Of a stretch of 46,202 bases of DNA, positions 3,762-38,452 are shown piece after piece. The stretch's first letter is position 1. Every line of letters starts with the position of its first letter. Source of the stretch: a phage; assembly GCA_025043315.1 (NCBI GenBank), contig GCA_025043315.1_4324.1; one strand, given 5' to 3'. The notes beneath the pieces were generated by a model. The model did no database searches, had not been told where the DNA came from, and saw only the letters and a program-made list of their open reading frames with translations. A program made the position numbers and the translations under genes.

Positions 3762-3804
3762 ATTATATGCCATCCGTGGCGACTGCGTTTAGCAATTCGT
3801 GCTA
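3762..3804 (-). promoter_or_regulatory. palindromic promoter module (TAGCAATTCGTGCTA 3790-3804; TATAAT at 3762-3767)
   Basis: 15-bp palindrome, 22-bp spacer, -10 hexamer, conserved leader CCACATCAACACAACGAGAG before ATG of 3543..3731. Confidence 0.6.
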
Positions 3805-4391
3805 TTTATAGAATGACTTAACAAAAGCCTCAGGTGTTACACCACGCTTGCAAGGCTTAATTAAATCCTTAATGATGAACCAGTGGAAAGTCTTCATATC
3901 AAAGACCAGTCGTTCACATGCGATCACATATTAAGTGAAGCTCATTCTTTCTTCTCCCGTTCCATCCACATTTTAGCCAGCTCGTAATAAGCTATCGCCT
4001 CCTCGACCTTTTCAGCTTCATCCTGCATTCTCTTACACCACTGGCTTGGTGATTCGTAGTTATCCATTAGTAAATTATAACCTCATCTTCTGAAAGGTAG
4101 ATATCCTCGCCATTCTTGTTCTTTACGATGTAGCAGCTACCATCATCACTCATCTCTGCGAAGAACACATCGCCACGCTGAATTAGCGCCACATAATCAC
4201 TCTCGCCAACATAAACAATCTTAATCATAGAATCACCTTACTTAAATTATCGTTCGTTAGAATGCGTTTTAGCGTCGTCTACGCCTGCCGAAATTATGTA
4301 GATAGTGGCGAAGCCTAGAGACCAAAGCAACCACGGTAGAGCCTCAACAAAAACATCGCCCATCATTAACTCCGTGTGCATATCGTTTACC

Positions 4392-4574
4392 TCAAATCTT
4401 ATTCAATTGCTCAAGAATTTCGTATGCCATCTCTCGAGCTTGCTCTTCGGTCATGTGGATGGTATGAACCTGTGGCTCTTCTCGCATCCCGCAAGCCTGG
4501 GCAATGATGAATGTTGTGTATCCGTCGAAGTGGTTGGCCTGGAGCTTTGGTTCTGATTGGGCAAATCGTGCCAT
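4392..4574 (-). CDS. hypothetical protein
   Basis: 60 aa ORF downstream of a variant promoter module. Confidence 0.45.
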   Translation of the reverse strand: MARFAQSEPKLQANHFDGYTTFIIAQACGMREEPQVHTIHMTEEQAREMAYEILEQLNKI

Positions 4575-4605
4575 CTGTAATCCCTCATCTCTTTTAGGTG
4601 GGGTA

Positions 4606-4648
4606 ACTATAACAAATTACCCCGGTACCGTTTTATCAATTAGTGCTA
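4606..4648 (-). promoter_or_regulatory. palindromic promoter module, degenerate palindrome (TATCAATTAGTGCTA 4634-4648; TATAGT 4606-4611)
   Basis: same 22-bp spacing and leader as the other copies. Confidence 0.45.
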
Positions 4649-4798
4649 CTCGGCTACTCTATATGAATTAATATCACCACCAAGAACCAACCATTGAGCC
4701 TTTGCACCATCGTAGGTATCGTAGACTCGAACGTGCCTAACGCTGTTAAACTTGCCAGTGTAGTACGTGTGGATGTAAATCATTTCTTTGCCCCCCTA

Positions 4799-5014
4799 TC
4801 ATGATAACTTTGAGAATGCAACCAGTGCTTCACCAGTCATTGATCTGATAAAAACTCTTCCGCCATTTTCTTTTACGTGCATATGCACGCCAGTCTTCGG
4901 TGATTTAACTGTGAGGATTTCGCGCTCGTTTACTACAGCAATCAACTTCATGCCGCGTCGGAATCCAAAAATATTACAAGCTCTGGAGCTTGCAAAATCA
5001 ACATTTAGAATCAT
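4799..5014 (-). CDS. hypothetical protein
   Basis: 71 aa ORF in early array. Confidence 0.4.
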   Translation of the reverse strand: MILNVDFASSRACNIFGFRRGMKLIAVVNEREILTVKSPKTGVHMHVKENGGRVFIRSMTGEALVAFSKLS

Positions 5015-5241
5015 TTCTTTGTCGCCTTATCCCAGTTAGTCAGGTACGCAGTATTGCCGCTTAGCGCCTCGTATTGTCGCGATGACTCAAAGTCAATAAC
5101 GTCGAACTGCTGGTTATTAATCTGATCGCCAACTTCTTTCACTACTCGCATCTGCTCGAATGATAGCGTGGAGTACATTGGTTTCATGATGATACTCTTT
5201 AGCACTGCTGCGTCTTTCTCTGACAGGTTAATTGTAATCAT
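5011..5241 (-). CDS. hypothetical protein
   Basis: 76 aa ORF downstream of promoter module 5360-5402. Confidence 0.5.
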
Positions 5242-5359
5242 TTTCCAAATACTCCCTTAGTCTTCAGATTGTGGCGATAGAACTGCATGATGTGACCGTT
5301 GTGGTGATTGCTTGATGGGTATTGCTTCATTTTTCCCGCCTCTCGTTTGGTGTGAACTA

Positions 5360-5402
5360 ACTATAACAAAACCCACCTGAGCGGGTTTAGCAATTTGTGC
5401 TA
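5360..5402 (-). promoter_or_regulatory. palindromic promoter module (TAGCAATTTGTGCTA 5388-5402; TATAGT 5360-5365)
   Basis: palindrome overlaps stop of the upstream gene; 22-bp spacer. Confidence 0.55.
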
Positions 5403-5660
5403 TTTACCAACCTTAATTGATTTAGACGATTCATGAATAATCTTCTGCCCGTAAAGCTCCTTAGCTTTCTGTAATGAATCAATCGAGTCATTGAGGTCTG
5501 TAAGGTAATCCTTGTGCCCACGTAAACCCATGCAAAGCATCTTCTTTATCGCGTGCTGAGTTGCTGGGTCAGATACGCGGAACGCATCAAGAACACGATA
5601 AACATCTACTGTTGTTACTGTGCCATCAATGCCAATAATTTCACGATCGTACTTACTCAT
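5400..5660 (-). CDS. hypothetical protein
   Basis: 86 aa ORF. Confidence 0.5.
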   Translation of the reverse strand: MSKYDREIIGIDGTVTTVDVYRVLDAFRVSDPATQHAIKKMLCMGLRGHKDYLTDLNDSIDSLQKAKELYGQKIIHESSKSIKVGK

Positions 5661-5851: not shown

Positions 5852-6099
5852 TGCTTCTCTGCCTCGTCCGCCGCCAGGATTAATGCCGAAGCCAGTTTTC
5901 GCGCTTGCTCAGGGGTGTATTGCATCAGCGTCTGGAAATCTTCGTATTCACCCGGATCGAAATTCAGAGATACAACGGCACCGCGATGGCTTTCTGTAAT
6001 GCTGACCTCGGCTTGGTTAAAGTAAACATCTTCAATACGAACACTTTCCATCTTCATTTCCTCTTCGTTGTTGATATGGTAATCATAGCTGACTACCAT
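5848..6099 (-). CDS. hypothetical acidic protein
   Basis: 83 aa ORF downstream of promoter module 6082-6124. Confidence 0.5.
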   Translation of the reverse strand: MVVSYDYHINNEEEMKMESVRIEDVYFNQAEVSITESHRGAVVSLNFDPGEYEDFQTLMQYTPEQARKLASALILAADEAEKQ

Positions 6100-6124
6100 A
6101 TTTATTGTTTAGCAATTCGTGCTA
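6082..6124 (-). promoter_or_regulatory. palindromic promoter module (TAGCAATTCGTGCTA 6110-6124; TATGAT 6082-6087)
   Basis: 22-bp spacer; leader CCATATCAACAACGAAGAGG. Confidence 0.6.
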
Positions 6125-6499
6125 TTCACCGCTCAGGAGTGATTTAGCTTTCCGGTAGAACTCAATCGCCGCCTCCACCTCTTCTTCACTGTACCGTAAG
6201 TGGTATGGTAGTCTACTAGGGTGCTCACCATCGTAAGTTTTGAAGTTAGGTTGCCAGCTTAAATCCGTCAAGGCAGGGTTGACGTAAACCTTATCCCCAA
6301 TTAGACAGGTAACATTCATCTTATCGAGCTCTGGAATTAGCTTATCCTTAATCAATAGCATCATTCCATCGCGCCCCGCAAATGGTTTCAGCTTGCGAGC
6401 ACCTTCATATAGAGACCTGATGCCGACAACTCCTTTGCCGTTAACTCCCATTTTCCTGATGATTCTAATCAGTACACCAAGCTCATCACCATTATACAC
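6122..6499 (-). CDS. stand-alone paralog of the C-terminal domain of the 9708..11291 replication protein (GTG start)
   Basis: GKGVVGIRSLYEGARKLKPF...NVTCLIGDKVYVNPAL aligns by eye with residues ~465-525 of the 527 aa protein. Confidence 0.5.
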   Translation of the reverse strand: MYNGDELGVLIRIIRKMGVNGKGVVGIRSLYEGARKLKPFAGRDGMMLLIKDKLIPELDKMNVTCLIGDKVYVNPALTDLSWQPNFKTYDGEHPSRLPYHLRYSEEEVEAAIEFYRKAKSLLSGE

Positions 6500-7155: not shown

Positions 7156-7184
7156 ATCATATACCGACTTACACATGTAGTCAA
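7156..7184 (-). promoter_or_regulatory. canonical sigma70-type promoter TTGACT-N17-TATGAT
   Basis: -35 at 7179-7184 and -10 at 7156-7161 on minus strand; leader AAACGAGAGGAG resembles palindromic-promoter leaders. Confidence 0.5.
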
Positions 7185-7540: not shown

Positions 7541-7726
7541 AAATGGCTCAGCCAGAATAAAAATCAACTTGTATGGTAGTCAACCCAGCTTTCATTCACT
7601 AACTCCCCACTTCATTTCACTTTTCGCAACAATCAAAAACATCATTGCATCAGAAGCAATATTGCTGTATGCGCAATAATCATGTGAATCATTGCAATAT
7701 CTGCAACAATCCATAAATCTGACGAA

Positions 7727-7770
7727 TAGCACTTTTTGCTAAAGACATGTTAAGGTGGTGACGCTATAGT
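7727..7770 (+). promoter_or_regulatory. palindromic promoter module (TAGCACTTTTTGCTA 7727-7741; TATAGT 7765-7770)
   Basis: 23-bp spacer; leader TAGCTCATCAACAACGGGGAG before HNH gene. Confidence 0.55.
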
Positions 7771-7791
7771 TAGCTCATCAACAACGGGGAG

Positions 7792-8340
7792 ATGGATATG
7801 AAGATTGATAAAGATGAATTGCGTCACGAAAGCGCACTGATTGGTCGAGTTAGTGACCCTGAAATTTGGAATTCGATATTTGAATATGATGGGGAAAACC
7901 TAATAAGAAAAGCAACAACATCAAGTAGAGCGAGGGCTGGAGATGTTGTGGGGTGCCTTGATAGGGGTTACTTAACTGTCAGGTTCAATAAAAAGCTATA
8001 CTTTGTTCATAGGATCGTATGGGAAATGCATAATGGACCCATTCCTGATGGAATGTATATTGATCACATAAATCACAAGAGAGATGATAACGGATTGGTC
8101 AATTTAAGGCTTGTAACAAGAATTGAAAATCAAAGAAACATGTCAATTAGCAAAAGGAATAGTAGCGGCTTTGTTGGTGTCTCATGGAGTAAGGTGCACA
8201 ATAAGTGGGAGGTTAGAATAGGAGTGGGGAATGGCACGAAAGACATGTATTTAGGAAGATATGATGCCATTGATGAAGCAGTTGCAGTTAGAAAGAAAGC
8301 GGAGTTAGATATTGGGTATCACAAAAATCACGGAGAATAG
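7792..8340 (+). CDS. HNH homing endonuclease with AP2-like DNA-binding domain
   Basis: HNH-type motif IDHINHKRDDNGLVNLRLVTRIENQRN, then SSGFVGVSW...KWEVRI; paralog of 18683..19213. Confidence 0.75.
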   Translation: MDMKIDKDELRHESALIGRVSDPEIWNSIFEYDGENLIRKATTSSRARAGDVVGCLDRGYLTVRFNKKLYFVHRIVWEMHNGPIPDGMYIDHINHKRDDNGLVNLRLVTRIENQRNMSISKRNSSGFVGVSWSKVHNKWEVRIGVGNGTKDMYLGRYDAIDEAVAVRKKAELDIGYHKNHGE

Positions 8341-8942: not shown

Positions 8943-9104
8943 ATGCTACTACCATCTGAGATAAATTATTACGATCTTGACACCGTCGCAGCTTACAGCG
9001 GAAAGGTCTGGCCTTGCGGTGACTGGTTTCGCGAGGACTTGCTAGAAAGCCATGAAATTATGCTCAAGGCGATAGAGAAGGCAAGAAGTAGCACTAATTG
9101 CTAA
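8943..9104 (+). CDS. hypothetical small protein (53 aa)
   Basis: ORF whose TAA lies inside the palindrome at 9089-9103. Confidence 0.4.
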   Translation: MLLPSEINYYDLDTVAAYSGKVWPCGDWFREDLLESHEIMLKAIEKARSSTNC

Positions 9105-9131
9105 AGTCCTTCGGGGCTTTTCATGTATATT
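9089..9131 (+). promoter_or_regulatory. palindromic promoter module (TAGCACTAATTGCTA 9089-9103; TATATT 9126-9131)
   Basis: 22-bp spacer; leader CTCATCGAAACGAAACAACGAAGGG. Confidence 0.6.
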
Positions 9132-9167
9132 AATCTCATCGAAACGAAACAACGAAGGGTAAAAGAA

Positions 9168-9521
9168 ATGACTACTACGATTACCAAAAACTGGATCAGC
9201 AACGAAAATGTACTCTATAAAGCTCGCGTTAAAGATGGTGTAGAACAAATCAAGAAAGATGGAAAATGGATTAACCTTGAAGAGCGCGGCAAGTACATCA
9301 AGACAAAGACCATTTACTGCACAAAGGTTAACCATCGCTCATCCATTCGTAAATACTTTACTGAAGGGGAGAGATATCAAGTAGATCTCCATGCTGGACT
9401 TGGGCAGCGCGCTGGATACATTTACGATAAGGAGGGCAGCGCATGGCAGCTATATCGTGACGAAGATGTTGGCTTTGTTACAGTTTGTGGAGACTATCGC
9501 TTTGAGGCTCAATACAAATGA
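9168..9521 (+). CDS. hypothetical protein (MTTTITKNWIS...)
   Basis: track ORF 9123..9521 trimmed to ATG after SD AAGGGTAAAAGAA, because the upstream part is promoter/leader. Confidence 0.55.
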   Translation: MTTTITKNWISNENVLYKARVKDGVEQIKKDGKWINLEERGKYIKTKTIYCTKVNHRSSIRKYFTEGERYQVDLHAGLGQRAGYIYDKEGSAWQLYRDEDVGFVTVCGDYRFEAQYK

Positions 9522-9634
9522 TTGATTTACTTGGTGGTGGGTACTTTATTATCTTGATCGTAGTTGAGATTCTTAAGATTGCATTATATGGAGCTGGATT
9601 GTGGATGTGTCTAAAGTGGATTAAGAACAACTAA
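9518..9634 (+). CDS. small hydrophobic protein (38 aa, MIDLLGGGYFIILIVVEILKIALYGAGLWMCLKWIKNN), one predicted TM helix
   Basis: ATG overlaps upstream stop (ATGA); below track cut-off. Confidence 0.35.
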   Translation: MIDLLGGGYFIILIVVEILKIALYGAGLWMCLKWIKNN

Positions 9635-9677
9635 TAGCACAAATTGATAATGAATTATAAGCGGTCGTTGATATAAT
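9635..9677 (+). promoter_or_regulatory. palindromic promoter module (TAGCACAAATTGATA 9635-9649; TATAAT 9672-9677)
   Basis: 22-bp spacer; leader GACCGCTCAGAAACAACACGGAGAG. Confidence 0.6.
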
Positions 9678-9707
9678 GACCGCTCAGAAACAACACGGAG
9701 AGAAGTA

Positions 9708-11291
9708 ATGTTTGATTTCAACGAAGATAAGCTATCTGTTGAACAGGTTATGGCAATTGCTGCCGCAGACAACCTCCCACCCCTGCGCGTGGCTATCAAT
9801 GCTAATGGATATCGCCAGTCTCAATCATTCTGGAAGGCTCCGGTCGAGATTGATGCAGCTAATGATAAGTATCCTGTAATCTCACTAGGAAATGATATTG
9901 ATGTTGTTGGCAAGCTGTCAGCCAATATTGCTCGCTCAGTTCAGTTTCCGGAGTCTTCAGCTTATATGCACTTCCTGGGGTGTATTTCCGCTGCAATGCT
10001 GGGTCGATTTACTGTTGAGTATCATGGAACTCAGCAGCCGACTTCGCTGTACGTCGTAACGAGTCAGCCACCATCGACCGGTAAATCAGCAATTAACTCA
10101 CTCTCCATTGCTCCAATGATCGCCGAGACTGAGCGACTGAACGAGGTGCGCAAGCGTGAGCGCAAAAAGATTATGGCCAAGCTATCCGCATTATCCAAAG
10201 AGATGAAACAGGAGAAATCTCCGTCAGAGATGGCTTCACTTTTTGAAGAGAAAGAGGAGTTAGAGGAAAAACTCGAGAAACTTTGTGATATCGTATTCCC
10301 GGTATCAGATACCACACCTGAAGGTCTTGCGCGAATAAACAACCGCCAGGGCAACTTTGCGGTAATTTCTGACGAAGCGACGAGTGTTAACTCACTGCTT
10401 GGCATGACCTATGGAGATGGCTCTAAGAAAACGAACAGCGAACTTGTGCTTAAAGCATGGGATGCTGGTAACGTATCTATCGCGCGTGCGAACGCAGAGA
10501 ACAACATGAGCTTCGTTGCTATGGGTTGCATATCGGTAATTGCGCAGGATGAAACAATCAATGCCATCATGAACGCTGGGGCGCGTGGCATTGGCGTATC
10601 GGAACGTTTCCTTTTGGTCCGCGAGAAGTCATTCCTGGGCGAACGTGTATTCGTTGATGAGAATGGAGACTCAACTTACGAGCCAATTGATGATGGACTA
10701 AAGGCTGATTACTTCCGCTTAGTTCATGAGATAATGAGTGAGCAAGATGTTAAGCTGACAGTAAGCAACTCAGCGATGAAATATCTCAACCGTGCTCGTC
10801 AGGAGATGGAACCTCACCTTGCTGACGGCGGAAAGTATTCGCACACAATGTTGCGCGGCGCTCTTGGTAAGTTCGATAAGCAGGCTATCAGGATTGCAGC
10901 CGTTCTTCACACAGTTCGTAACTGGTTCAACCCAAATGGCGGTAGTCCGCAAAAGTCCAGAGAGATTGATCTCGACACCATGCAAGAGGCTGTAATTATG
11001 TTCCATGAACTGAGTAAGACTTATCTGTCATCTGCAAACGCTGCTGGGCATGCTGGCGACAATGCAGAGATGAATAAGCTGATTGATATTCTGATTAAGC
11101 AAGGTAAGAGCGGTAAAGGTGTTGTTGGTATTCGTTCCCTGTACGAAGCTGCTCGCAAGGTTAAGCCATTCGAGGCTCAGGCGGGAGTGATGACGAAGAT
11201 TAAAGATCACTTGCTGCCAATGCTTGATGAGAAAAACTACACGTGCCTGATTGGTGATAAAGTTTACATTAATCCACGACTATTGGGGTGA
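9708..11291 (+). CDS. P-loop NTPase replication protein (primase/helicase-associated), C-terminal domain duplicated at 6122..6499
   Basis: Walker A-like SQPPSTGKSA and Walker B-like FAVISDE; 527 aa. Confidence 0.6.
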   Translation: MFDFNEDKLSVEQVMAIAAADNLPPLRVAINANGYRQSQSFWKAPVEIDAANDKYPVISLGNDIDVVGKLSANIARSVQFPESSAYMHFLGCISAAMLGRFTVEYHGTQQPTSLYVVTSQPPSTGKSAINSLSIAPMIAETERLNEVRKRERKKIMAKLSALSKEMKQEKSPSEMASLFEEKEELEEKLEKLCDIVFPVSDTTPEGLARINNRQGNFAVISDEATSVNSLLGMTYGDGSKKTNSELVLKAWDAGNVSIARANAENNMSFVAMGCISVIAQDETINAIMNAGARGIGVSERFLLVREKSFLGERVFVDENGDSTYEPIDDGLKADYFRLVHEIMSEQDVKLTVSNSAMKYLNRARQEMEPHLADGGKYSHTMLRGALGKFDKQAIRIAAVLHTVRNWFNPNGGSPQKSREIDLDTMQEAVIMFHELSKTYLSSANAAGHAGDNAEMNKLIDILIKQGKSGKGVVGIRSLYEAARKVKPFEAQAGVMTKIKDHLLPMLDEKNYTCLIGDKVYINPRLLG

Positions 11292-13017: not shown

Positions 13018-13058
13018 TTTTGTGTTTCCTCGTTTAGTTCATCTCGTTTCGATGTGGT

Positions 13059-13102
13059 GATTATGCCGCATTTCTACGGCATGGGTTAGGCAAAGAGTGC
13101 TA
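13059..13102 (-). promoter_or_regulatory. palindromic promoter module, degenerate (TAGGCAAAGAGTGCTA 13087-13102; ATAATC 13059-13064)
   Basis: 22-bp spacer; leader CACCACATCGAAACGAGATG. Confidence 0.45.
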
Positions 13103-14233
13103 TTAACTAAACATTTCGGGACGGCAAGTGAATCGGCCAATCTCACCAAACTTAGGGCTATAGATTATCACTGAAGCCTGTCGGTATGATCGATACCCTC
13201 CATTGGCGCTGTACGCATCCTTACAACCAAGTTGTCCATGAGACTCATCAATGCCTAAGTTACCCTCTGTAATCGTTTGATGGTGGTAATGGCCCGAGTG
13301 AGTGTAAACATACTCAGATTCACCAAAGGCCTTGCGATGATCGCGAGCCAGGGTGGACAGTCGAGTGTCAGGTTTTTTGAGTTCATGTCCATGACAGTAA
13401 CCAAGCAGGGTCTTTCCAAACTGTGTTACGTGAAGCGCCGCAGGAGATGCATCAACATTAACTCGAGGCTCATCCATATAGAACGCCGCCATTGCAGCGC
13501 GAAGCCAAATCATACCTGAGAGGTCGTGGTTGCCAGGGATAATCTGCACCTCAACCTCGGCGTGCTTATCAAGCATCCGACTAATTGCTCGGCGGGTAGC
13601 TCGCACCGCTACGTAAACAAGCTTGTGATAACGGCTATCTTGATCAAGAATATGACGACTCGTTGGAGTTACCGCTTCCATTCCGTCAGAGTGAAGGAAG
13701 TCTCCACCAATCAGCAATACAGCTTTCTTTGAGTTAGGGGCTTTTGCTACCGCGTAATCAAAGTAATCATTAAGGATTCTCTCAGCAATTTCAGTACTGT
13801 AGTTCTCACCACATTCAGCGTGGTGAGCCATGGCGCCAATGTGAAGGTCGAACACTGGGTAAAGGCTCAATGTGTCCTCAAATAATGATACTCTGAGCGC
13901 CTTAGGTTTCTCACGTGGCAACTCATCAGTTAGGGCTTGAATTACCTGAAGCATCATTTCTTCTTGCTTCTCTTTGTCAATGTCAGACTTAACCCACTGT
14001 TGCTTAATCTCACCATCCGCACCAATAAGGCTAGAAACACCCTTAACAGCGTAACCCTGCGGAATCAGATTGCTAACATCACGACCGTGACCTTCACCCA
14101 TCTTAGCCAATTTACTGCGACGCAATTCAACGTTGCGAATGTTCATTCCGTACTTCTCTGCGATTGCTTTGTTAGTCATGCCGTTAGCGAGCTCTTCGCG
14201 CAATTGTTCGTTGGTAATTTTTGCAGTTGCCAT
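13103..14233 (-). CDS. metallophosphoesterase (calcineurin-like) with N-terminal HTH-like segment
   Basis: motifs DLHIG, GGDFLHSD, GNHD, GHELKK; N-terminal GMTNKAIAEKYGMNIRNVELRRSKL. Confidence 0.65.
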   Translation of the reverse strand: MATAKITNEQLREELANGMTNKAIAEKYGMNIRNVELRRSKLAKMGEGHGRDVSNLIPQGYAVKGVSSLIGADGEIKQQWVKSDIDKEKQEEMMLQVIQALTDELPREKPKALRVSLFEDTLSLYPVFDLHIGAMAHHAECGENYSTEIAERILNDYFDYAVAKAPNSKKAVLLIGGDFLHSDGMEAVTPTSRHILDQDSRYHKLVYVAVRATRRAISRMLDKHAEVEVQIIPGNHDLSGMIWLRAAMAAFYMDEPRVNVDASPAALHVTQFGKTLLGYCHGHELKKPDTRLSTLARDHRKAFGESEYVYTHSGHYHHQTITEGNLGIDESHGQLGCKDAYSANGGYRSYRQASVIIYSPKFGEIGRFTCRPEMFS

Positions 14234-15355: not shown

Positions 15356-15606
15356 TATTCTAATACCTCGTCAAATTTTTCGCCAAATTCGTTTTTAACA
15401 GTTTCTAAGTCATCTTTGTATGTCGGGCTAACTTCAAATGCGTAAGACTTATCATCAACATCAATCAGTATATATCCAACGCTTGTTGTTATTGCCAGTT
15501 CATACATATAACCAGTCTTGCGTGATTCGTAGAATTTTCCAGTGTAGATAGTAGCCATTTTGTTTCTCTCTCTGTGTTTCGTTTCGATGGAGTAACTATA
15601 CCCCAC
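15355..15606 (-). CDS. hypothetical acidic protein
   Basis: 83 aa ORF downstream of promoter module. Confidence 0.5.
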   Translation of the reverse strand: MGYSYSIETKHRERNKMATIYTGKFYESRKTGYMYELAITTSVGYILIDVDDKSYAFEVSPTYKDDLETVKNEFGEKFDEVLE

Positions 15607-15637
15607 CTTTTAAAATCGTCTTTAGCAATTAGTGCTA
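15595..15637 (-). promoter_or_regulatory. palindromic promoter module (TAGCAATTAGTGCTA 15623-15637; TATAGT 15595-15600)
   Basis: 22-bp spacer; leader TACTCCATCGAAACGAAACACAGAGAG. Confidence 0.6.
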
Positions 15638-16054
15638 TTTTGAAATCATTTCTTTGAATGCTGCAATAAAACCCTCGCGACCATAGGCCACAGCCGCGAA
15701 ACCTCCTGATTCTCTCACGCTTTTAAGGAAAGACTTCTGTTCGTTACTGACTGGACTAGCTTGTGTTTTTCCAGCTCTCTTTAGCTCTATGGCTCCAAAA
15801 GGGTACTTACCACGCAGAGATTCAGGTATCAGAAACAAGCAATCTGATACGCCCTTAAGCAATCCTTTAGCCTGGTCCTTTCTTGCCTGACCGATGCTCT
15901 TCATCGATTCATTAACCGTGTGCCAATAAACAATCTGCGGGTAGTTATACTTAACCCAATCAGAGCAAAAGATTTGTTCGTCATCCTCCTTTGGGCATGA
16001 TTTAACGGGGCCAGGGTAAAACTCAATGTAATCTTCTTTATCTGTTATGTTCAT
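15635..16054 (-). CDS. VRR-NUC domain nuclease
   Basis: PD-(D/E)XK-like GVSDCLFLIP...GAIELKRAGKTQASPVSNEQKSFL; adjacent to SF2 helicase. Confidence 0.65.
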   Translation of the reverse strand: MNITDKEDYIEFYPGPVKSCPKEDDEQIFCSDWVKYNYPQIVYWHTVNESMKSIGQARKDQAKGLLKGVSDCLFLIPESLRGKYPFGAIELKRAGKTQASPVSNEQKSFLKSVRESGGFAAVAYGREGFIAAFKEMISK

Positions 16055-18045
16055 AACAATTCTCCAAAATTCTTAAAAGCTATTATATCCTTTCCTTTGC
16101 CATTCTTGCGGTGTGTCACCTGGACTGGCGCGCGAAACTTATCTGCGTTAGTCATAATCATTCTGGCATTCTTCAGCCTGCCAATTCGTGCTGCTTCAGC
16201 GCGATTTTCAATGTGAGCAAGGCAAAAGTTTTTCCAAAGCACACTACAAACCCTATGGTCAGATTCTGGATTGAAGAACTCCCAAGCGTTAAATCTTTCT
16301 CCGTTGTGGGCCATGATATTGTACTTAACAACAATGCCCGTTTGATTCTTGCTTAAACCAACTTGAAAATCATAAACCCGCAAATAGTCTCCGCGACGAT
16401 ACATCTTTCCAGTCAGGTTAGCGTTTGGGTCCTTAAGCGTTTCTCCGCATTCACGACAAACTTTTGCTGCTATGTCATTTTTAGTTCCACAACCTTTCTT
16501 GATTACCGCCTTTGTTTGTTGGTCGGTAATATCATCACATGTCGTGAACTGGAAAAAGTGATCGCATCTAACACCATCAATCTTATTGCTACAGCGTCTA
16601 GCAAATGGCGAGTTCTCATATCCACATTGCGGACACTGGCGAACCTTATCACCACCTTTTCTTGAGGATTTAAACTTCTCAGCCTGAATCTCCTCAATTA
16701 TTGGGTCAAAGTAAAGCTCTGCCATGTCATCAAGCGCTCCGGCAAAGTCTAATACCAAGTGGTCCTCCTTCTTGAACCCAGCATCTATGTGCGCCTTTTT
16801 TAGTTTTCGCATGCCACGACCAAGAAGCTGAATCATTAAGGTTAGACTGCCAATCTTGCGTAGTATGACGCTAGTATCCCACAGCGGTTGGTTTACGCCC
16901 GTAGTTAGACAACCAATCTGGAATATTATTTTGTACTTCCCTGTCTGGCAATCTGCAAGAATCTCTCTGCGCTTCCTCTCTCCGGTAGAATCGGTGATAA
17001 TGGCGTAAGGGTATCCATCCGGCAATGCCGCAGCAGCCTCATCACAATGAAGTTTTCCAGCGCAGGTGACCAATGCGGCGTTGCGAGTCTCCAGTATTTT
17101 GACGACAAACTGCATTATCTTTTGTGTCATGGTTTGGTTGTCGTGAATCTTTGCGGCCATTGCATCCATTTCTTTTCTGCTAAAGTCTTTCACGCCATCA
17201 CTACCGTCTGGAACAAACTCGCTAAGGTCATAACCCAAATCGCCAACCTCGCCATAAACAGTGGGAACCACGAATCCCAAATCAACAAGGTAATTTGTTG
17301 GAACCTGAATCACAGTTTTTCGCCAGAACCCACGGATATTTGGATTGCTAACGACGATATGATCATTGTTTCGATAAGGGCTACCAGTAAGGCCGAATAT
17401 ACGAAGCTCCCGCCCGTATTTTTCACGGCAGCGACGCTTCATCTCAGTGATTATTAGCGTGTACTGCGCGCGACCAGTGCCAAACAACCCTGTGTTTACG
17501 CCATCCTTAAAAACCATCTCGCCTTTCTTTGTGCTCATTTGTTCAAATGTTTCTTCGTTCTCTTCAGCCTCAACGATATCCATGTGATCAACCATATGAC
17601 ACTCATCGATTGCAATAACTGCCGGAACATAGTCACCAAGCCCCTTAAATAGGCCGTTGGCTGCCGTGCCCTCACTAGCAACTATGGTTGGGTAGTAAAC
17701 TGATTTAACGTTAAGTCCGGCGCAATAGACGCTGTTGCGGATGCCGAAATTACGAAGTTCTTCTGAGTTCTGGCTTACTATCTCTGACTGGCGAGAAAGA
17801 ACCATGTAAGGCAACCCCAATTGCTCCATGCGCTTTCCAATCATGGCGAGAATGATTGTCTTACCAGCAGATACTGAAAGGTCTGCGATAAATGGGGCCT
17901 CGTACTTCCCAATAGCCTTTCCGATAGCATCAAATGTAACGCACTGGAACTCGTAAGGAGTTATCTCTCCAAACTGATAGTCTTTCTGAATCTGTTTGAT
18001 TCTTTCTTTATCGAAGTTTGCAACCTGCTTCTCGATAGGCAACAT
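16051..18045 (-). CDS. SF2 DNA helicase with C-terminal zinc-ribbon region
   Basis: Walker A SVSAGKT, DExH-like IDECHMV, motif VI LGRGMRK; Cys clusters CPQCG...CRECG. Confidence 0.8.
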   Translation of the reverse strand: MLPIEKQVANFDKERIKQIQKDYQFGEITPYEFQCVTFDAIGKAIGKYEAPFIADLSVSAGKTIILAMIGKRMEQLGLPYMVLSRQSEIVSQNSEELRNFGIRNSVYCAGLNVKSVYYPTIVASEGTAANGLFKGLGDYVPAVIAIDECHMVDHMDIVEAEENEETFEQMSTKKGEMVFKDGVNTGLFGTGRAQYTLIITEMKRRCREKYGRELRIFGLTGSPYRNNDHIVVSNPNIRGFWRKTVIQVPTNYLVDLGFVVPTVYGEVGDLGYDLSEFVPDGSDGVKDFSRKEMDAMAAKIHDNQTMTQKIMQFVVKILETRNAALVTCAGKLHCDEAAAALPDGYPYAIITDSTGERKRREILADCQTGKYKIIFQIGCLTTGVNQPLWDTSVILRKIGSLTLMIQLLGRGMRKLKKAHIDAGFKKEDHLVLDFAGALDDMAELYFDPIIEEIQAEKFKSSRKGGDKVRQCPQCGYENSPFARRCSNKIDGVRCDHFFQFTTCDDITDQQTKAVIKKGCGTKNDIAAKVCRECGETLKDPNANLTGKMYRRGDYLRVYDFQVGLSKNQTGIVVKYNIMAHNGERFNAWEFFNPESDHRVCSVLWKNFCLAHIENRAEAARIGRLKNARMIMTNADKFRAPVQVTHRKNGKGKDIIAFKNFGELL

Positions 18046-18146
18046 ATCTGAATTCCTATAAAAATTGTCTTGTAGCGTTTAATTGAGTACAATATTACCA
18101 TCAAATCATGATGACTTTTAACAAAAAATGCTATTGAGGTAATAAG

Positions 18147-18632
18147 ATGAATGCAGTCGACAAGCGAACCATTAACGGTAATAACGGAACCATCCGCACT
18201 GAAGACAAAAAACAACGGAAACGACCTTCAGGTTACTACGTTTTGAAAGATGAGGTAAGGGCGGGTTTACGTGCGCGGCTGGAAATTGTTCTTGATTTCT
18301 TCGGCACAAAGGCAAATATGGCAAAGCAATTAAAGGTAACACCACAGGCTGTAGAGGAATGGTTTAAGCGCGGTATGATTTCTGCGCGCGGGGCTCAACT
18401 CTCACACAACTACTACAAGCGAACAGGGGAAGGCTTTCGCGCCACATTCTGCCGACCAGATCTGCAATTCGACGGAAACGGCAAGCCTCTTACTCTACGT
18501 TGCAAAAAGCGTCACATGCTGCGTGTTGTTACTGAGGCTGAATTAGCCACCAAGCCAGAGTGTCGATCATGGCGCAAGATTAAGGAAGAGAATCGCAAAA
18601 AGCGAGAAGCAGAGACAAATAGCACGAATTGA
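18147..18632 (+). CDS. HTH DNA-binding protein (Cro/YdaS-like), candidate regulator
   Basis: HTH-like TKANMAKQLKVTPQAVEEWFKRGMIS; basic N-terminus. Confidence 0.5.
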   Translation: MNAVDKRTINGNNGTIRTEDKKQRKRPSGYYVLKDEVRAGLRARLEIVLDFFGTKANMAKQLKVTPQAVEEWFKRGMISARGAQLSHNYYKRTGEGFRATFCRPDLQFDGNGKPLTLRCKKRHMLRVVTEAELATKPECRSWRKIKEENRKKREAETNSTN

Positions 18633-18662
18633 TAAACAATGGCGCTATGCATTGTGTATAGT
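18620..18662 (+). promoter_or_regulatory. palindromic promoter module (TAGCACGAATTGATA 18620-18634; TATAGT 18657-18662)
   Basis: 22-bp spacer; palindrome overlaps stop of upstream gene. Confidence 0.55.
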
Positions 18663-18682
18663 GCCTTTATTGTTTATGGAGG

Positions 18683-19213
18683 GTGTATATGAAAGTTAAT
18701 GATTTTGTTTATGTTGACGATGAATTTAAATTAAGATGGAAGAGTAGAGGTGTTGAATTCTTCAAAACAGAGAGGTCATCAAAGATCTGGAATAGTAGGT
18801 TTGCAAACAAGGAATGTGGATACATTAGGGATGACGGCTATCTTTCTTTTGAGTTCAATGGTCGAGCATACAGAAATCACAGGGTGATATGGGAAATTGT
18901 AACTGGTAATGAAATAGATGATAACATGGAGATTGACCATATAGATCATAATACAACAAACAACAATATTGAAAACCTTAGACTTGTTGACAGGAAAGAG
19001 AATTGCAAAAACCAATCCATGATGCCCCATAACTCGAGTGGCTTCACAGGTGTTCACTGGTGGTCAGCAAGAAACAAATGGAGAGCCCGCATCGAATGTG
19101 ATGGCAGAGTGAAAACAAAAACATTTGAAGACTTTAATGACGCTGTCGAGTGGAGAAAAGAAATGAACATAAATCTTGGCTTTCACAAGAATCATGGAGA
19201 TAAGAAAAAATGA
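18683..19213 (+). CDS. HNH homing endonuclease with AP2-like domain (second copy)
   Basis: IDHIDHNTTNNNIENLRLVDRKENCKN, SSGFTGVHW...KWRARI. Confidence 0.75.
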   Translation: MYMKVNDFVYVDDEFKLRWKSRGVEFFKTERSSKIWNSRFANKECGYIRDDGYLSFEFNGRAYRNHRVIWEIVTGNEIDDNMEIDHIDHNTTNNNIENLRLVDRKENCKNQSMMPHNSSGFTGVHWWSARNKWRARIECDGRVKTKTFEDFNDAVEWRKEMNINLGFHKNHGDKKK

Positions 19214-20156: not shown

Positions 20157-20181
20157 GCATTAAAGATGATACAATCCACTT

Positions 20182-20196: not shown

Positions 20197-20221
20197 AACA
20201 ACAATATAGGAATTGATTATT

Positions 20222-23095: not shown

Positions 23096-23746
23096 TTAGA
23101 ATGTGTCGATTTGTTGTGATTCTACTTCAATCTTTTCTTCATGACTACTTTTTTCCGCGACTTTCTTTGGTGTTGCTGGGTTGAATCCAGTTGCTGCGTT
23201 TGCTTCGATTTCTGCTTTTCGCTCGATAATGTGAGGTTCAAAAACCTTCCACCCCGCTGCGTCAAGTGATTGCTTGGCTTCTTTCCAAACATTACGAAGC
23301 TCATCAAGGGTGTTGCATTTCTCGAGCTCTCTCTTGAAGTCCTTAACACCTTTCGCTGCGAGATTTCCATCATCATCTGCCTGGCTAAGTCCTAGTGCTG
23401 CTGTGATGCCGTAACGTCGCGCGTATGTAAGTGCAGAACCGTAACCTTGAGCGTCTTGCTTGCTGATTGGGACAATCATTAAGAAGCTAACCCACTCCCC
23501 TGATTCGGCGTGGAATAGCTTTGTCTCAACCTTCATGCGATTCGTTTGTTCATAATCAAGCACACTTTGGAACATAACAAGACCGCACTCATCTAAACCT
23601 GGCTCGACAGCCGCCAAAACGTCTTCTAAGGTAGCGTATTTATTCTTAAGGTGTGAGTTCTGCTTAGACTTTTCAGCCTTCGCAAATAGCGATTTAGCAG
23701 TGTGCAGGGCGTTTAAAATTGATTTGCATGATTCTGAAATTTGCAT
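23096..23746 (-). CDS. Erf-family single-strand annealing protein
   Basis: motif GSALTYARRYG; adjacent to ssb and exonuclease. Confidence 0.6.
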   Translation of the reverse strand: MQISESCKSILNALHTAKSLFAKAEKSKQNSHLKNKYATLEDVLAAVEPGLDECGLVMFQSVLDYEQTNRMKVETKLFHAESGEWVSFLMIVPISKQDAQGYGSALTYARRYGITAALGLSQADDDGNLAAKGVKDFKRELEKCNTLDELRNVWKEAKQSLDAAGWKVFEPHIIERKAEIEANAATGFNPATPKKVAEKSSHEEKIEVESQQIDTF

Positions 23747-23775
23747 CTTTAACCTCGTTCGTTGTTGATGGGGTA

Positions 23776-23818
23776 ATCATACCCCACCTTTTAATTTTGT
23801 ATTTAGCAATTCGTGCTA
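23776..23818 (-). promoter_or_regulatory. palindromic promoter module (TAGCAATTCGTGCTA 23804-23818; TATGAT 23776-23781)
   Basis: 22-bp spacer; leader TACCCCATCAACAACGAACGAGG. Confidence 0.6.
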
Positions 23819-23819
23819 T

Positions 23820-25850: not shown

Positions 25851-25859
25851 GGCGATAAA

Positions 25860-25902
25860 TAGCACTAATTGCTAAAGGAATCTGACTGTCTTTAGGTATA
25901 TT
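25860..25902 (+). promoter_or_regulatory. palindromic promoter module (TAGCACTAATTGCTA 25860-25874; TATATT 25897-25902)
   Basis: 22-bp spacer. Confidence 0.55.
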
Positions 25903-26004
25903 TATGCGCATGGCGGCAATGGTGTCGTCATACAACCTGAATTTCAGGCTTAACATCAAATCATGACCCAAATTTGGGTCATGAAAAACAGAAGAGAGAT
26001 TAAA

Positions 26005-26247: not shown

Positions 26248-26673
26248 ATGCTTCTTGTTGGAATGCGTGAGTCAAAGGCAGTTCGCCTAGCGGTTCTTGA
26301 TAAGCTTAAGCAGATGCAGGCCACCATTAAAAAACAAGCAGAAGTAATCAGCCAGATGGTAAGTATTGATGAACTAAAAGAGGCGAGAATGATGCTTGGT
26401 GTAGCTAATGCGCAGAATGCACATCTTAGCCAGCGCATTGTTGCAGAGCAAAGAATAAATGAGATCTTACTCATGGATAAGAATACCGATGAAAAGCTCG
26501 ACATGCTGGCTTGTGAGGCTCGCCAGTGCTGGGTTAGCCGCTCTGATGAGATGGAGGAAAGATTTAAGTATGAAGTGCAATGCTTCGCTCTTAAAGAAAA
26601 GACGGACGCACTGACCGGATTAATTGAGAATGAGCTAGGTATTGATATTAAGCTGTTGCTCGAAAAGAAATAG
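26248..26673 (+). CDS. C-terminal part of the same Rha-like reading frame (141 aa), in frame with 26005..26244 across TAG-CAA
   Basis: same frame as upstream ORF, separated only by TAG at 26242-26244 plus CAA. Confidence 0.45.
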
Positions 26674-26713
26674 CACTAATTGCTAAACACTGGTCGCAAG
26701 GATGCGATACTAT
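26671..26713 (+). promoter_or_regulatory. palindromic promoter module (TAGCACTAATTGCTA 26671-26685; TACTAT 26708-26713)
   Basis: 22-bp spacer; leader TACTCCATCGAAACGAAACGAAC. Confidence 0.6.
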
Positions 26714-26753
26714 TACTCCATCGAAACGAAACGAACTTACTAAGGAACATAAA

Positions 26754-26999
26754 ATGACTAACTTAATCAAATCAGTAATCATCGCCGCAGCAGTAATCAT
26801 GGCAGTTGGTTGTTCTTCCGGTCCTCGCCCGGATGGTTGGTGTGCAACCCAAGCAAACGGCGTATGCGTGGCTAAGTGGGAAGGCGGTGTAGTTGTTCCG
26901 GCTGGTGAGCTTGATGTTCGCTACGCCGGAATTGAAAGCAAGGCCGGAGGCGGTTACGGTGGGTCAGTTGCAGATCATGGTTCTAAGGAGTGGAAATAA
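26754..26999 (+). CDS. small lipoprotein (candidate superinfection-exclusion protein)
   Basis: signal peptide plus lipobox MAVGC; 81 aa. Confidence 0.7.
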
Positions 27000-32829: not shown

Positions 32830-33195
32830 TTATTCAAAATAAACCTCAAAATCTATAAATACTGAAGCACCATTGGATTTAAGCTCCTCAGCCTCAATCA
32901 GCTTTTCATCAAATAATGACTTAGTAACATCAATCCAATTCATTCTATATTTCATCTTTCCATCATGCGTATCACTTAAAAGATTGAATCCCACATCATT
33001 AAGTTCAACTCGTGAAAAGTTGTAATAACTATCATGGAGCATGCTGGTAAATTTTACAGTTTTACCATCATCATCCCTAACCTGATAGTAACGACCTGAG
33101 TCATCAACATCACAGGCGTAAGCTTCACCAACAGAAAATAAACCTTCGCATTCTTCTTTGTCTTTCTTGTATCCGTTAAATTTAATGTAGAACAT
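32830..33195 (-). CDS. hypothetical protein inserted between L and K (moron candidate)
   Basis: own promoter module upstream and hairpin cassette downstream; start at ATG 33193-33195 with GAGGAG SD. Confidence 0.5.
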   Translation of the reverse strand: MFYIKFNGYKKDKEECEGLFSVGEAYACDVDDSGRYYQVRDDDGKTVKFTSMLHDSYYNFSRVELNDVGFNLLSDTHDGKMKYRMNWIDVTKSLFDEKLIEAEELKSNGASVFIDFEVYFE

Positions 33196-33223
33196 TTTTA
33201 ACTCCTCTCGTTTGTGTAAAGTA

Positions 33224-33266
33224 ATCATACTCCATCCGTGGCGACTTCGTTTAGCAATTCGTGCTA
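33224..33266 (-). promoter_or_regulatory. palindromic promoter module (TAGCAATTCGTGCTA 33252-33266; TATGAT 33224-33229)
   Basis: about 55 bp near-identical to the copy at 3762-3804. Confidence 0.6.
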
Positions 33267-33267
33267 T

Positions 33268-37418: not shown

Positions 37419-37453
37419 CTAAGCCTCCATAATAGAAAACCCGCCGAAGCGGG

Positions 37454-37765
37454 TTATTTTTTTCTCAGGTTATCCATCATCTCGAGAGCCTTAGCTTCAA
37501 GGATGCGTAAATCACTGAGCACCAATTCTTCTTCTGAGACATTATACACTCTAAAGAGGAAATTTAGCACGTTGTAATCTAACCCTGTAGCTCCGTTAGC
37601 TCCGACTCTCCACTGTGTCGCCATTGAACAATAAATGTCCCACGCCTTCATCATGTTTTCGTCGAAGTGTAAAACTTCAGGCTCTTCATCTTCGTAATCA
37701 GAGCGGCGCATCCCAATAGCTTCCAGTTCGGCATCAGTTGGCTCTGACTGGTACTGTAGATACAC
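37454..37765 (-). CDS. tail assembly chaperone, T-like frame, expressed as G-T fusion by -1 frameshift
   Basis: in the -1 frame relative to 37774..38088; frame open back to the slippery site. Confidence 0.55.
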   Translation of the reverse strand: MYLQYQSEPTDAELEAIGMRRSDYEDEEPEVLHFDENMMKAWDIYCSMATQWRVGANGATGLDYNVLNFLFRVYNVSEEELVLSDLRILEAKALEMMDNLRKK

Positions 37766-37773
37766 CGCCCTCT

Positions 37774-38088
37774 TTAGTTTTTTACACGCTGACCAGCCAG
37801 TGCTTGCATATAGGCGGTAGTTAGCGCAACGGTTGAAGCCGGGAACAGGTCGGAGAACTCATTAACGTTATCCTCGTTGTATTCCTCTTCCAAATCCCAA
37901 TCAGAGGCAATTGCCATGATAAGCTCTTTGGTGCTCAAATCTTCCTTGCTAAGCAATTCCTGCAGCTCTGAAGTCTTCTTGTGCTTAACTGTAAAGATAA
38001 CCTCTACATCCTGGTCGTTAGCCAGCTTGAATTTTACAGGCAGCTTAAAGTCAGGGAGTGCTGCCAGTGAAAGTTTGAACTTTGCCAT
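37774..38088 (-). CDS. tail assembly chaperone, G-like
   Basis: 104 aa acidic protein ending ...AGQRVKN; slippery heptamer A-AAA-AAC at 37777-37783. Confidence 0.6.
   Translation of the reverse strand: MAKFKLSLAALPDFKLPVKFKLANDQDVEVIFTVKHKKTSELQELLSKEDLSTKELIMAIASDWDLEEEYNEDNVNEFSDLFPASTVALTTAYMQALAGQRVKN
37777..37783 (-). other. candidate programmed -1 ribosomal frameshift site (A AAA AAC)
   Basis: heptamer in X-XXY-YYZ phase at the last two codons of the G-like ORF. Confidence 0.55.
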
Positions 38089-38127
38089 CTTAGTTAATCC
38101 TCTTATTGTTTGTGAGTATGTATTCTA

Positions 38128-38376
38128 TTACTTAGTGTTTTCTTTTGCAATCTTAGTAGCTGAGTCCTTACAAACCTCTTTGCCATATTTCATGATTTGA
38201 TCAACTTTGCCACCCACAAGTTCCTGGCATGCTCGCTCAGCTTTAGCAAACTCAACAGTATATTTGTTTGCCTTGCTGTTTGCATCGGCATCGCCAGTTG
38301 GGTTGACAATCTGAACTACTGCATAAAAAGCAACCAGAACCGCAGTAAGCTTGATGATGTTTTTAACGTTATTCAT
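38128..38376 (-). CDS. small secreted or membrane-anchored protein (moron candidate)
   Basis: N-terminal hydrophobic signal IIKLTAVLVAFYAVVQI; own promoter module upstream. Confidence 0.5.
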   Translation of the reverse strand: MNNVKNIIKLTAVLVAFYAVVQIVNPTGDADANSKANKYTVEFAKAERACQELVGGKVDQIMKYGKEVCKDSATKIAKENTK

Positions 38377-38409
38377 TTAATTAATCTCTCATTTCGTTTC
38401 GATGAGTTA

Positions 38410-38452
38410 ACTATACAGGAAGATTGGATTAACGCTTTAGCAAAAAGTGCTA
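38410..38452 (-). promoter_or_regulatory. palindromic promoter module (TAGCAAAAAGTGCTA 38438-38452; TATAGT 38410-38415)
   Basis: 22-bp spacer; leader TAACTCATCGAAACGAAATGAGAGA. Confidence 0.55.

Follow-up and report, generated by a model that had tools for sequence, protein, structure and literature searches.

At class II promoters of the mar-sox-rob regulon, such as micF, lpxC P2, lpxL P1 and rfaY P1, an asymmetric 20-bp marbox (GCAC followed by (Y)AAA) lies over the -35 region of a promoter that has a sigma70 -10 element and a poor -35, the class being defined by the forward orientation of the box and its overlap with the -35 (PMC12052159, PMC10268841). We describe here a module of the same layout that is dispersed over a 46.2-kb stretch of phage DNA (46,202 nucleotides; contig GCA_025043315.1_4324.1; the whole stretch is called the window below), which comes from a T1-like siphophage of the Drexlerviridae, subfamily Braunvirinae, and shares 87-90% identity with Veterinaerplatzvirus and BEK-type coliphages. 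Each module is probably a class II MarA/SoxS/Rob-dependent sigma70 promoter. The modules share the 18-bp distance between box and -10 with micF, the model class II marbox promoter, whose native 20-bp marbox in E. coli, ACAGCACTGAATGTCAAAAC, ends 18 bp ahead of the -10 hexamer TAGAAT. They differ from the E. coli and Salmonella marbox promoters in that the phage boxes are at or close to the best attainable score, compared with degenerate chromosomal sites; in that 16-20 copies are found per 45-kb genome, serving the genes of a virulent phage; and in that the boxes are coupled to a conserved start region, a leader (CATCGAAACGA) and a covarying inverted repeat around the -10.

To our knowledge, T1-like phages encode no RNA polymerase or sigma factor and show hardly any recognisable sigma70 promoters, and their transcription has been an open question since the T1 genome paper, with some 20 copies of a repeat left unexplained. 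The re-annotation of phage TLS by Kropinski and co-workers in 2024 describes this repeat as a 21-nt direct repeat, aaATAGCACnnnTTGnTAAAA, present in 21 copies and found also in T1, Rtp and Rogue1; it is intergenic, is oriented with transcription, precedes start codons by about 76 nt and falls into AAA, TTT and GAA subtypes (PMC11447400). Its authors considered stoperators, enhancer-binding sites and UP elements and left the function open (PMC11447400). We find that the TLS/T1 repeat is the same element as the box of the window module. The TLS paper makes no link to the marbox, to a fixed 18-bp distance from a -10 element or to phages outside the Drexlerviridae (PMC11447400), other T1-like genome papers looked only for TTGACA-N17-TATAAT, and our literature search found no paper that connects the T1-like repeat with the marbox, MarA, SoxS or Rob, or that reports its spread beyond the Drexlerviridae. 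The repeat and the promoter type were each already known; the link between them and the spread beyond the Drexlerviridae appear to be new, and the marbox reading makes the old question of T1-like transcription directly testable.

The original prediction was of a dispersed TAGCA-N5-TGCTA palindrome placed at a fixed distance from a -10 hexamer, and the repeat is real: the exact palindrome occurs 12 times in the window (0.01 expected), and 18 times if one mismatch is allowed (1.9 expected). Read in its orientation, the module consists of a 20-bp box (aATAGCACnnnTTGCTAAAn), an 18-bp spacer, a TATAGT-like -10 with G at -14, C-1/A+1, a CA-rich leader, a Shine-Dalgarno sequence (SD) and an ATG. Counted from the palindrome, the hexamer (TATAAT, TATAGT, TATGAT, TATATT or TACTAT) lies 22 bp away, or 23 bp in the copy at 7727, and the copy at 13087 carries a 1-nt insertion within the box. 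The leader resembles CATCGAAACGA and runs for 20-39 nt before SD and ATG, the module at 25859 being atypical with 54 nt. This architecture is present in all 15 of the full copies first listed. The list itself was incomplete, since one more copy lies at 18115..18134 (-), upstream of the helicase gene 16051..18045, so that the window holds 16 module copies and one orphan box, 17 sites altogether. The orphan, at 20182, indeed lacks a -10, and we now orient it to the minus strand (GCACGAATTGCTAAA on that strand), where it adjoins a terminator at 20132-20149. That every copy is aimed at the gene downstream holds for the full modules, each of which precedes an ATG, and fails for the orphan, which faces no gene. 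The view that the modules avoid the structural operon is only partly correct; two copies lie within the tail-gene cluster, and that at 33252 would drive a homologue of a PHROG 'virion structural protein'. A motif search in other phages found the module again in BEK6, T1, T1-like IMG/VR contigs, IME_EC2 and C130_2.

The marbox consensus was reportedly given by Martin et al. in 1999 as AYnGCACnnWnnRYYAAAYn. Definitions in more recent papers back this form (PMC12052159, PMC8811837, PMC9178005), and 14 of its 15 specified positions are conserved across 97 phage modules, Y19 alone being free. The modules compared here and below were taken from the window, BEK6, T1 and T1-like IMG/VR contigs and amount to 91-97 non-redundant instances depending on the seed; the seeds fixed one half of the box only, or neither half, and a TAnnnT hexamer was required for selection. 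Read in its orientation, the box agrees with the marbox wherever two published definitions specify a base. The definition of the Grainger laboratory, 5'-gcannwwntgnnaaa-3' (PMC12052159), has 16 exact matches in the window, compared to 0.96 expected, and AYNGCACNNWNNRYYAAA has 11, compared to 0.045. We also built a weight matrix from 70 Salmonella MarA/SoxS/Rob/RamA sites mapped by chromatin immunoprecipitation sequencing (ChIP-seq; Table 1 of PMC10268841), with a maximum score of 18.08. The consensus of this matrix, GCACAAATTGCTAAA, is letter for letter the window site at 5386(-), and the maximum score is reached by five window sites, this one and four others. Fourteen window sites score at least 17.19, exceeding 68-70 of the 70 chromosomal sites; the median of the latter is 11, while the phage boxes score 17-18. 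Sites scoring at least 15 number 0.25 in shuffled windows, one (intragenic) in phage T7 and 19 in T1. The box, which had not been recognised as that of a known host factor, is therefore a MarA/SoxS/Rob marbox at consensus quality, in the micF orientation and at the micF distance of 18 bp from the -10.

The palindrome had been taken for the unit that is recognised, a proposal that does not survive comparison of the modules, in which conservation is asymmetric and oriented with transcription. G4 is found in 91/91 modules and its symmetry partner C14 in 60/97 (T in 31); C7 (87/91) and T11 (93/97) are both near-invariant and mutually non-complementary; no base other than A or T occurs at positions 9 and 10; and the flanking A-runs, A16-A18 (at least 92/97) and A1 (84/91), share one strand. 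Most of the T1 copies carry TTGTTA, so that the palindrome is broken and the marbox kept. Since conservation is asymmetric and oriented, the site fits a monomer with two different helix-turn-helix (HTH) units rather than a symmetric dimer; a symmetric dimer on the palindrome is ruled out by the unequal conservation of the half-sites. The palindrome is an incidental by-product of the marbox.

The position of the box is as constrained as its sequence. The distance to the hexamer is 18 bp in 129/160 instances across relatives and in 14/16 window modules, the exceptions in the window being 19 bp at 7727 and the box insertion at 13087. With a start 7 nt past the hexamer, the box covers -50 to -31 and is centred at about -40.5, which agrees with the earlier proposal that it is located where a class II activator binds; the RamA site on micF is centred at about -41 (PMC8811837). 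All 16 full modules are forward as in micF, with GCAC promoter-distal and AAA promoter-proximal. In the cryo-electron microscopy structure of the Rob activation complex on micF, contacts are made to -47G, -45A, -38G, -37T and A/T at -35/-34 (PMC9178005). These bases are conserved in 91/91 to 96/97 modules with the exception of -37, a T in micF, which is C in 60 and T in 31 of 97. In the core promoter, G is found at -14 in 74/97 modules, C at -1 in 66/97 and A at +1 in 83/97, and transcription is predicted to start at this conserved A, 7 nt after the hexamer; a literature search found no start-site data for the Drexlerviridae. The module has no usable -35, as had been foreseen: the best match to TTGACA averages 2.6/6. 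Salmonella class II promoters are likewise devoid of a -35, their best match averaging 1.9 (PMC10268841). T is present at -15 in only 40/97 modules, so that most copies do not have a full extended -10. TTGCTA was considered as a -35 and is excluded by its 22-bp spacing to the -10. Sigma70 tolerates 16-18 bp between the two elements.

Which protein might read the box was approached through the gene content of the phages that carry it. A phage-encoded MarA-like protein was rejected: AraC/HTH_18 domains, as well as MotA and AsiA domains, were absent by Pfam from 20 window open reading frames (ORFs) of at least 89 aa and from one 73-aa ORF, and phmmer with MarA and SoxS query sequences gave nothing below E = 0.07 against six-frame ORFs. 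The earlier proposal of phage HTH proteins as binders is not supported. ORF 13103..14233 encodes a Metallophos/SbcD-like nuclease (Pfam). The 161-aa ORF 18147..18632 does encode a Cro/C2-like regulator (weak P22_Cro match; phrog_2856; no match in a PDB sequence search), which is found in the window and T1 and is undetected by tblastn and phmmer in two module-bearing genera. These are represented by Enterobacteria phage IME_EC2 (Murrayvirus, 59% GC), with 6 module sites, and Escherichia phage C130_2 (Hungariovirus, 55% GC), with 8 sites of which 7 have the full architecture, compared to 0.1 expected; their module reads ATAGCAC[GAA/TTT/AAA]TTGCTAAAnn, 18 bp, TATAGT. Both genomes are of the podovirus type, carry ejection and needle genes like those of P22 and have no nucleotide similarity to the window or T1. 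By tblastn and phmmer, the only proteins that they have in common with the window are the helicase, primase, VRR-NUC, Erf, ExoVIII, the endolysin and an acidic 73-aa protein, and their HTH families differ (HTH_3 in IME_EC2, weak Myb/HTH_23 matches in C130_2). Enterobacteriaceae hosts, which these phages have in common, carry MarA, SoxS and Rob, and some have RamA (PMC10268841). The occurrence of the same module in unrelated backbones that share few proteins, together with the lack of an AraC-like phage protein, argues for a host factor.

Some features of the modules outside the Drexlerviridae deserve mention. The modules of IME_EC2 (at 28180-28264, 36140-36227 and 62-165) have another leader, with a conserved hairpin resembling GGGCGgcaatgggtCGCCC in the 5' untranslated region instead of CATCGAAACGA, and some copies in C130_2 have T1-like leaders. 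An IMG/VR contig of 176 kb and 43% GC contains a single marbox. After it come a terminator hairpin, a TATATT hexamer more than 18 bp away and a leader of T1 type, ACATCGAAACGAAAC, an arrangement that may represent a variant of the module or a fragment acquired by transfer. The 73-aa protein, which is strongly acidic and is encoded at 15134-15355 (-) in the window (phrog_2676), is the sole small protein detectably shared with IME_EC2 (gp13, E = 5e-4). A protein of such charge is unlikely to bind DNA, and its target could be a host protein.

If the modules are class II marbox promoters, a monomer of a host AraC-family activator would bind the asymmetric 20-bp marbox in forward orientation, at about -50 to -31. 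This would most likely be Rob in unstressed cells and MarA or SoxS under stress, Rob being favoured in the former case because it is constitutive and the highest-affinity binder (PMC10268841). One HTH would read GCAC (-47 to -44) and the other TTGCTAAA (-40 to -33), and the activator would bend the DNA, fill the place of the missing -35 and make contact both with region 4 of sigma70 and with the C-terminal domain of alpha, in the manner seen for the complexes of Rob and RamA (PMC9178005, PMC8811837). RNA polymerase would be recruited to the TATAGT-type -10 with its G at -14 and would start at the conserved A, 7 nt past the hexamer, to give a CA-rich leader of 20-39 nt with an SD. Early, middle and moron genes, served by about 20 promoters per genome in relatives, would in this way be wired to a host regulator rather than to -35 elements.

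A number of points weigh against dependence on these host activators, beginning with the fact that T1-like phages grow explosively in ordinary broth. The main caveat is that little MarA or SoxS is present when cells are not under stress, and that Rob is then reported to be mostly sequestered and kept from DNA (PMC2787020, PMC10268841). Consensus-strength boxes may compensate for scarce activators, or infection may activate or stabilise the regulators. T2, A3, T11 and T12 of the box are near-invariant though outside the generic marbox consensus, which could reflect selection for one paralogue in particular, or for another protein whose specificity overlaps with theirs. GenBank names Pseudomonas syringae, Campylobacter jejuni and Stutzerimonas stutzeri as hosts of phages that are 87-96% identical to coliphages (PP134917, MG065688, OR754315). 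Either these labels are doubtful or the phages are cases that challenge MarA/SoxS/Rob dependence. If the labels are correct, we assume that Pseudomonas, Campylobacter and Stutzerimonas hosts probably lack the three regulators. A mimic encoded by the phage could be too divergent for Pfam, phmmer and tblastn to detect, and boxes without a promoter (20178-20197 in the window, 8365 in T1) mean that activation cannot be their sole role. Lastly, binding, activation, the exact start site and the choice among the three host proteins are all matters that we infer from sequence.

A site centred at about -41/-42 that replaces or abuts the -35 is also found at lambda PRM, where CI bound at OR2 contacts sigma70 region 4, and the window phage encodes a Cro/C2-like HTH protein of its own. 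An activator made by the phage, acting on sigma70 polymerase from about -42 either as a dimer of the 161-aa regulator or as an unrecognised small protein, is unlikely in our estimation but is the strongest of the alternatives. The 5-bp arms form a perfect inverted repeat in 12 copies, centred near -42; the regulator is conserved in the window and T1 and has a plausible sigma70 promoter of its own at 18065-18093; a good canonical promoter at 7184..7156(-) could provide immediate-early expression; and both the conservation of T2, A3, T11 and T12 beyond the generic marbox and the scarcity or sequestration of the host activators in unstressed cells would find an explanation. Such a protein does not account, however, for conservation that is asymmetric and oriented with transcription (C14 against G4, the C7/T11 pair, the same-strand A-runs), where the lambda site and a symmetric dimer part company with the window site, nor for the TTGTTA copies of T1, which give up the palindrome and keep the marbox. 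The HTH protein is not present in all box-carrying phages, no homologue being detected in IME_EC2 and C130_2, which have identical boxes and other HTH families, and the exact coincidence with the ChIP-seq consensus, in the micF register, would go unexplained. T4 middle promoters also combine a good -10 with the lack of a -35 and an upstream box containing TGCT. The centre of the MotA box is at -30, with about 12 bp between box and -10. The window box is centred at about -40.5 and, as MotA and AsiA domains were not found among the ORFs run through Pfam, we rejected a MotA/AsiA system.

It is improbable, in our opinion, that the boxes are negative or architectural elements (stoperator-like roadblocks, insulators, or decoys for MarA, SoxS and Rob) placed beside extended -10-like promoters that fire unaided. 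Stoperator and enhancer ideas were raised by the TLS authors (PMC11447400), and the stoperators of mycobacteriophage L5 are also present in many asymmetric intergenic copies oriented with transcription; L5 is temperate and its stoperators bind a repressor and block elongation, whereas here the promoter geometry is fixed and the phage virulent, and the gene list, in which no integrase search was run, has no L5-like repressor/integrase system. Orphan boxes that have no -10 (20178-20197; 8365 and 34903 in T1) and the location of boxes after the upstream stop codon, often with hairpins or terminators, would suit such a role, and about 20 consensus sites per replicating genome would presumably be an effective sink for the regulators. 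Yet neither a roadblock nor a decoy needs the forward orientation or the rigid 18 bp to the -10, and while G at -14 could support some activator-independent initiation, the scarcity of T at -15 leaves most copies short of a full extended -10. That RNA polymerase itself reads the box, unaided by any other protein, as an unusual element of the UP type or as a distal counterpart of the -35 is the least probable of the explanations and hardly credible to us. The flanks are A-rich, TTGCTA resembles TTGACA and UP elements are mentioned in the TLS paper (PMC11447400), but TTGCTA lies 22 bp from the -10, beyond the reach of sigma70, invariant G4, C5, C7 and G13 are untypical of UP elements, and the marbox fit holds position by position. 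Finally, a known transposable element, which had been named as an explanation that would undo the prediction, was rejected as the source of the copies: conservation is confined to the box, the -10 and the start region, with spacers that vary between copies, and neither the 41 ORFs compared with Pfam or PHROGs nor the BEK6 annotation showed a transposase. Rfam at its gathering threshold returned tRNA-Arg only and no RNA family for the module.

A wider proposal builds on the marbox promoters, and we offer it tentatively, as a possibility that falls a little short of probable: in three or more lineages of virulent enterobacterial phages (Drexlerviridae, Murrayvirus and Hungariovirus), consensus marboxes would have replaced the -35, making MarA, SoxS and Rob the principal early and middle activators; the development of the phage would respond to signals from bile salts, fatty acids, oxidative stress and antibiotics; and some 20 optimal sites per replicating genome, orphans included, could also titrate the regulators from host defence genes. 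If the marbox reading itself is confirmed, a lytic phage family would depend on a host stress-response activator. Our literature search found no earlier example of such reliance, nor do we know of one. Confirmation would also bear on phage therapy, on the effects of antibiotic stress on phage yield, on the vigour of T1 contaminations and on promoter annotation in hundreds of Drexlerviridae genomes, and the modules could serve as very strong marbox reporters.

A further feature of the modules is an inverted repeat around the -10. In a third to half of them, a spacer segment (typically -24 to -19) pairs with the discriminator (-6 to -1) in a 5-9-bp stem with the -10 in the loop. The arms vary and stay complementary (GGGGTA/TACCCC, GGGGTT/AACCCC, AAGGCC/GGCCTT, AGCGGTC/GACCGCT, ATATGGTA/TACCATAT); the longest Watson-Crick run averages 4.55 with the module's own partner and 3.58 with swapped partners, a difference reached in 0/300 permutations (z = 11 in a repeat run of 40 permutations). 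Examples in the window are at 23769-23790, 4599-4625, 6075-6100 and 9660-9690, and others are found in T1 and at many IMG/VR loci. The stems are not intrinsic terminators, a T-rich tail being present in just 1 of 47 stems of at least 6 bp. A second class of hairpin, with a GAAA or TTCG loop, lies wholly within the spacer and abuts a T-rich -10 (9089 and 5388 in the window). Module hairpins may be the 3' structures of transcripts reading through from the upstream gene, and the covarying -10 hairpin might add a further layer of control.

The genes served include small early ORFs, two homing endonucleases, a DUF3987 protein, the helicase, Erf and an anti-repressor-like gene, as well as a small ORF whose N-terminus looks lipoprotein-like by eye and two genes in the tail cluster, one of them the virion-protein homologue. 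From the left end of the window, four modules on the minus strand precede small ORFs. The first, at 3731..3805 (-), has its marbox at 3786-3805 (ATAGCACGAATTGCTAAACG, matrix score 17.34), TATAAT at 3762-3767, a predicted start at about 3755 and the ATG of a 62-aa ORF at 3731. It is followed by 4574..4649 (-), with the marbox at 4630-4649 (GTAGCACTAATTGATAAAAC, 17.93), TATAGT at 4606-4611, a predicted start at about 4599 and a 60-aa ORF from 4574. The module at 5330..5403 (-) has its marbox at 5384-5403 (ATAGCACAAATTGCTAAACC, 18.08), the 15-mer of which is identical to the ChIP-seq consensus, a spacer containing a terminator-like hairpin, TATAGT at 5360-5365, a predicted start at about 5353 and the ATG of a 30-aa ORF at 5330. 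At 6051..6125 (-), the marbox (6106-6125; 17.34) precedes TATGAT at 6082-6087, which lies within the inverted repeat ATATGGTA/TACCATAT, a predicted start at about 6075 and a 67-aa ORF beginning at 6051.

Three modules on the plus strand come next. That at 7726..7800 (+) combines a marbox at 7726-7745 (17.54) and a 19-bp spacer with TATAGT at 7765-7770, a predicted start at about 7777 and the ATG, at 7798, of a 180-aa HNH/AP2 homing endonuclease. At 9088..9170 (+), the marbox (9088-9107; 18.08) is separated by the spacer hairpin AAAGTCCTTCGGGGCTTT from TATATT at 9126-9131, with a predicted start at about 9138 and a 117-aa ORF from 9168. The marbox at 9634-9653, in module 9634..9710 (+), has AAT replacing AAA; TATAAT is at 9672-9677, the predicted start at about 9684 and the ATG of the DUF3987 protein (527 aa) at 9708. 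A diverged module at 13018..13103 (-) contains the box with the 1-nt insertion (ATAGCACTCTTTGCCTAACC, 13084-13103), CATAAT at 13060-13065, a predicted start at about 13053 and the ATG of a 58-aa ORF at 13018, and the module at 15558..15638 (-) has its marbox at 15619-15638 (18.08), TATAGT at 15595-15600, a predicted start at about 15588 and a 67-aa ORF from 15558. The helicase module added to the first list, 18045..18134 (-), is weaker, with a marbox (ATAGCATTTTTTGTTAAAAG, 18115-18134) scoring 14.88, a -10-like AATATT at 18091-18096 and the ATG of the 664-aa helicase at 18045; the same position is occupied in T1.

In the module at 18619..18691 (+), the marbox (18619-18638; 17.19) overlaps the stop codon of the Cro-like regulator, and TATAGT at 18657-18662 is inside a terminator-like hairpin (18641-18665), ahead of the ATG of a 174-aa HNH endonuclease at 18689. 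The module of the Erf-like recombinase, 23746..23819 (-), has its marbox at 23800-23819 (17.34), TATGAT at 23776-23781 in the loop of GGTGGGGTA/TACCCCATC, a predicted start at about 23769 and the ATG at 23746. The split anti-repressor-like gene is preceded by 25859..25965 (+), with a marbox at 25859-25878 (18.08), TATATT at 25897-25902, a predicted start at about 25909 and, after the 54-nt leader, the ATG at 25963; at 26670..26756 (+), a marbox at 26670-26689 (18.08), TACTAT at 26708-26713 and a predicted start at about 26720 precede the ATG, at 26754, of an 81-aa ORF, the one with the lipoprotein-signal-like N-terminus. Of the modules in the tail-gene cluster, that at 33195..33267 (-) has its marbox at 33248-33267 (17.34), TATGAT at 33224-33229, a predicted start at about 33217 and the ATG, at 33195, of a 121-aa protein (phrog_14592, 'virion structural protein'). 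The other, at 38376..38453 (-), comes directly after a terminator at 38463-38482 and comprises a marbox at 38434-38453 (17.54), TATAGT at 38410-38415, a predicted start at about 38403 and the ATG, at 38376, of an 82-aa ORF with a hydrophobic N-terminal stretch by eye.

The orphan marbox, 20178..20197 (-) (TTAGCACGAATTGCTAAAGT, 17.34), has as its neighbour the terminator between the primase and tail-fibre genes; it is conserved in T1, where its equivalent is at 34903. Marboxes without a usable promoter are found in T1 among those at 34903, 8365, 15083 and 18847, one of which lies 16 nt before the terS start codon, and the late region of T1 contains modules in antisense orientation.

The gene blocks of the window comprise a lambda-like tail module, a replication-recombination block (helicase, primase, ExoVIII and Erf), two HNH homing endonucleases and one tRNA-Arg. 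Both homing-endonuclease genes, 7798-8340 (+, also AP2) and 18689-19213 (+), have their own marbox module upstream, which suggests that the module travels with, or gets acquired by, mobile genes. Two adjacent ORFs, 25963-26244 and 26248-26673 (+), match the two halves of the anti-repressor family phrog_8235 (profile positions 1-55 and 79-219); the gene at 25963-26673 thus appears to be split in the window, BEK6 having a single 215-aa 'Roi' gene. Matches to canonical sigma70 promoters are at chance level in the window (42 vs. 39 expected; 28 vs. 33 expected), in agreement with the scarcity of such promoters reported for TLS (PMC11447400). The best of them (7184..7156(-), TTGACT-17-TATGAT) lies in a non-coding stretch of 670 bp (7125-7797), which separates divergent gene blocks and also contains (AAT)n at about 7393-7422, (TA)n at about 7431-7445 and four copies of GCGTAAC, including an 18-nt inverted repeat (7477-7494 / 7515-7532); this stretch is a candidate origin or control region. 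GC-rich, perfectly symmetric hairpins with T-runs on both strands are found at 22609-22628, 27966-27987, 31436-31452, 37438-37455, 38463-38482 and 11637-11654, and these bidirectional terminator-like structures sit at gene-block boundaries and between tail genes.

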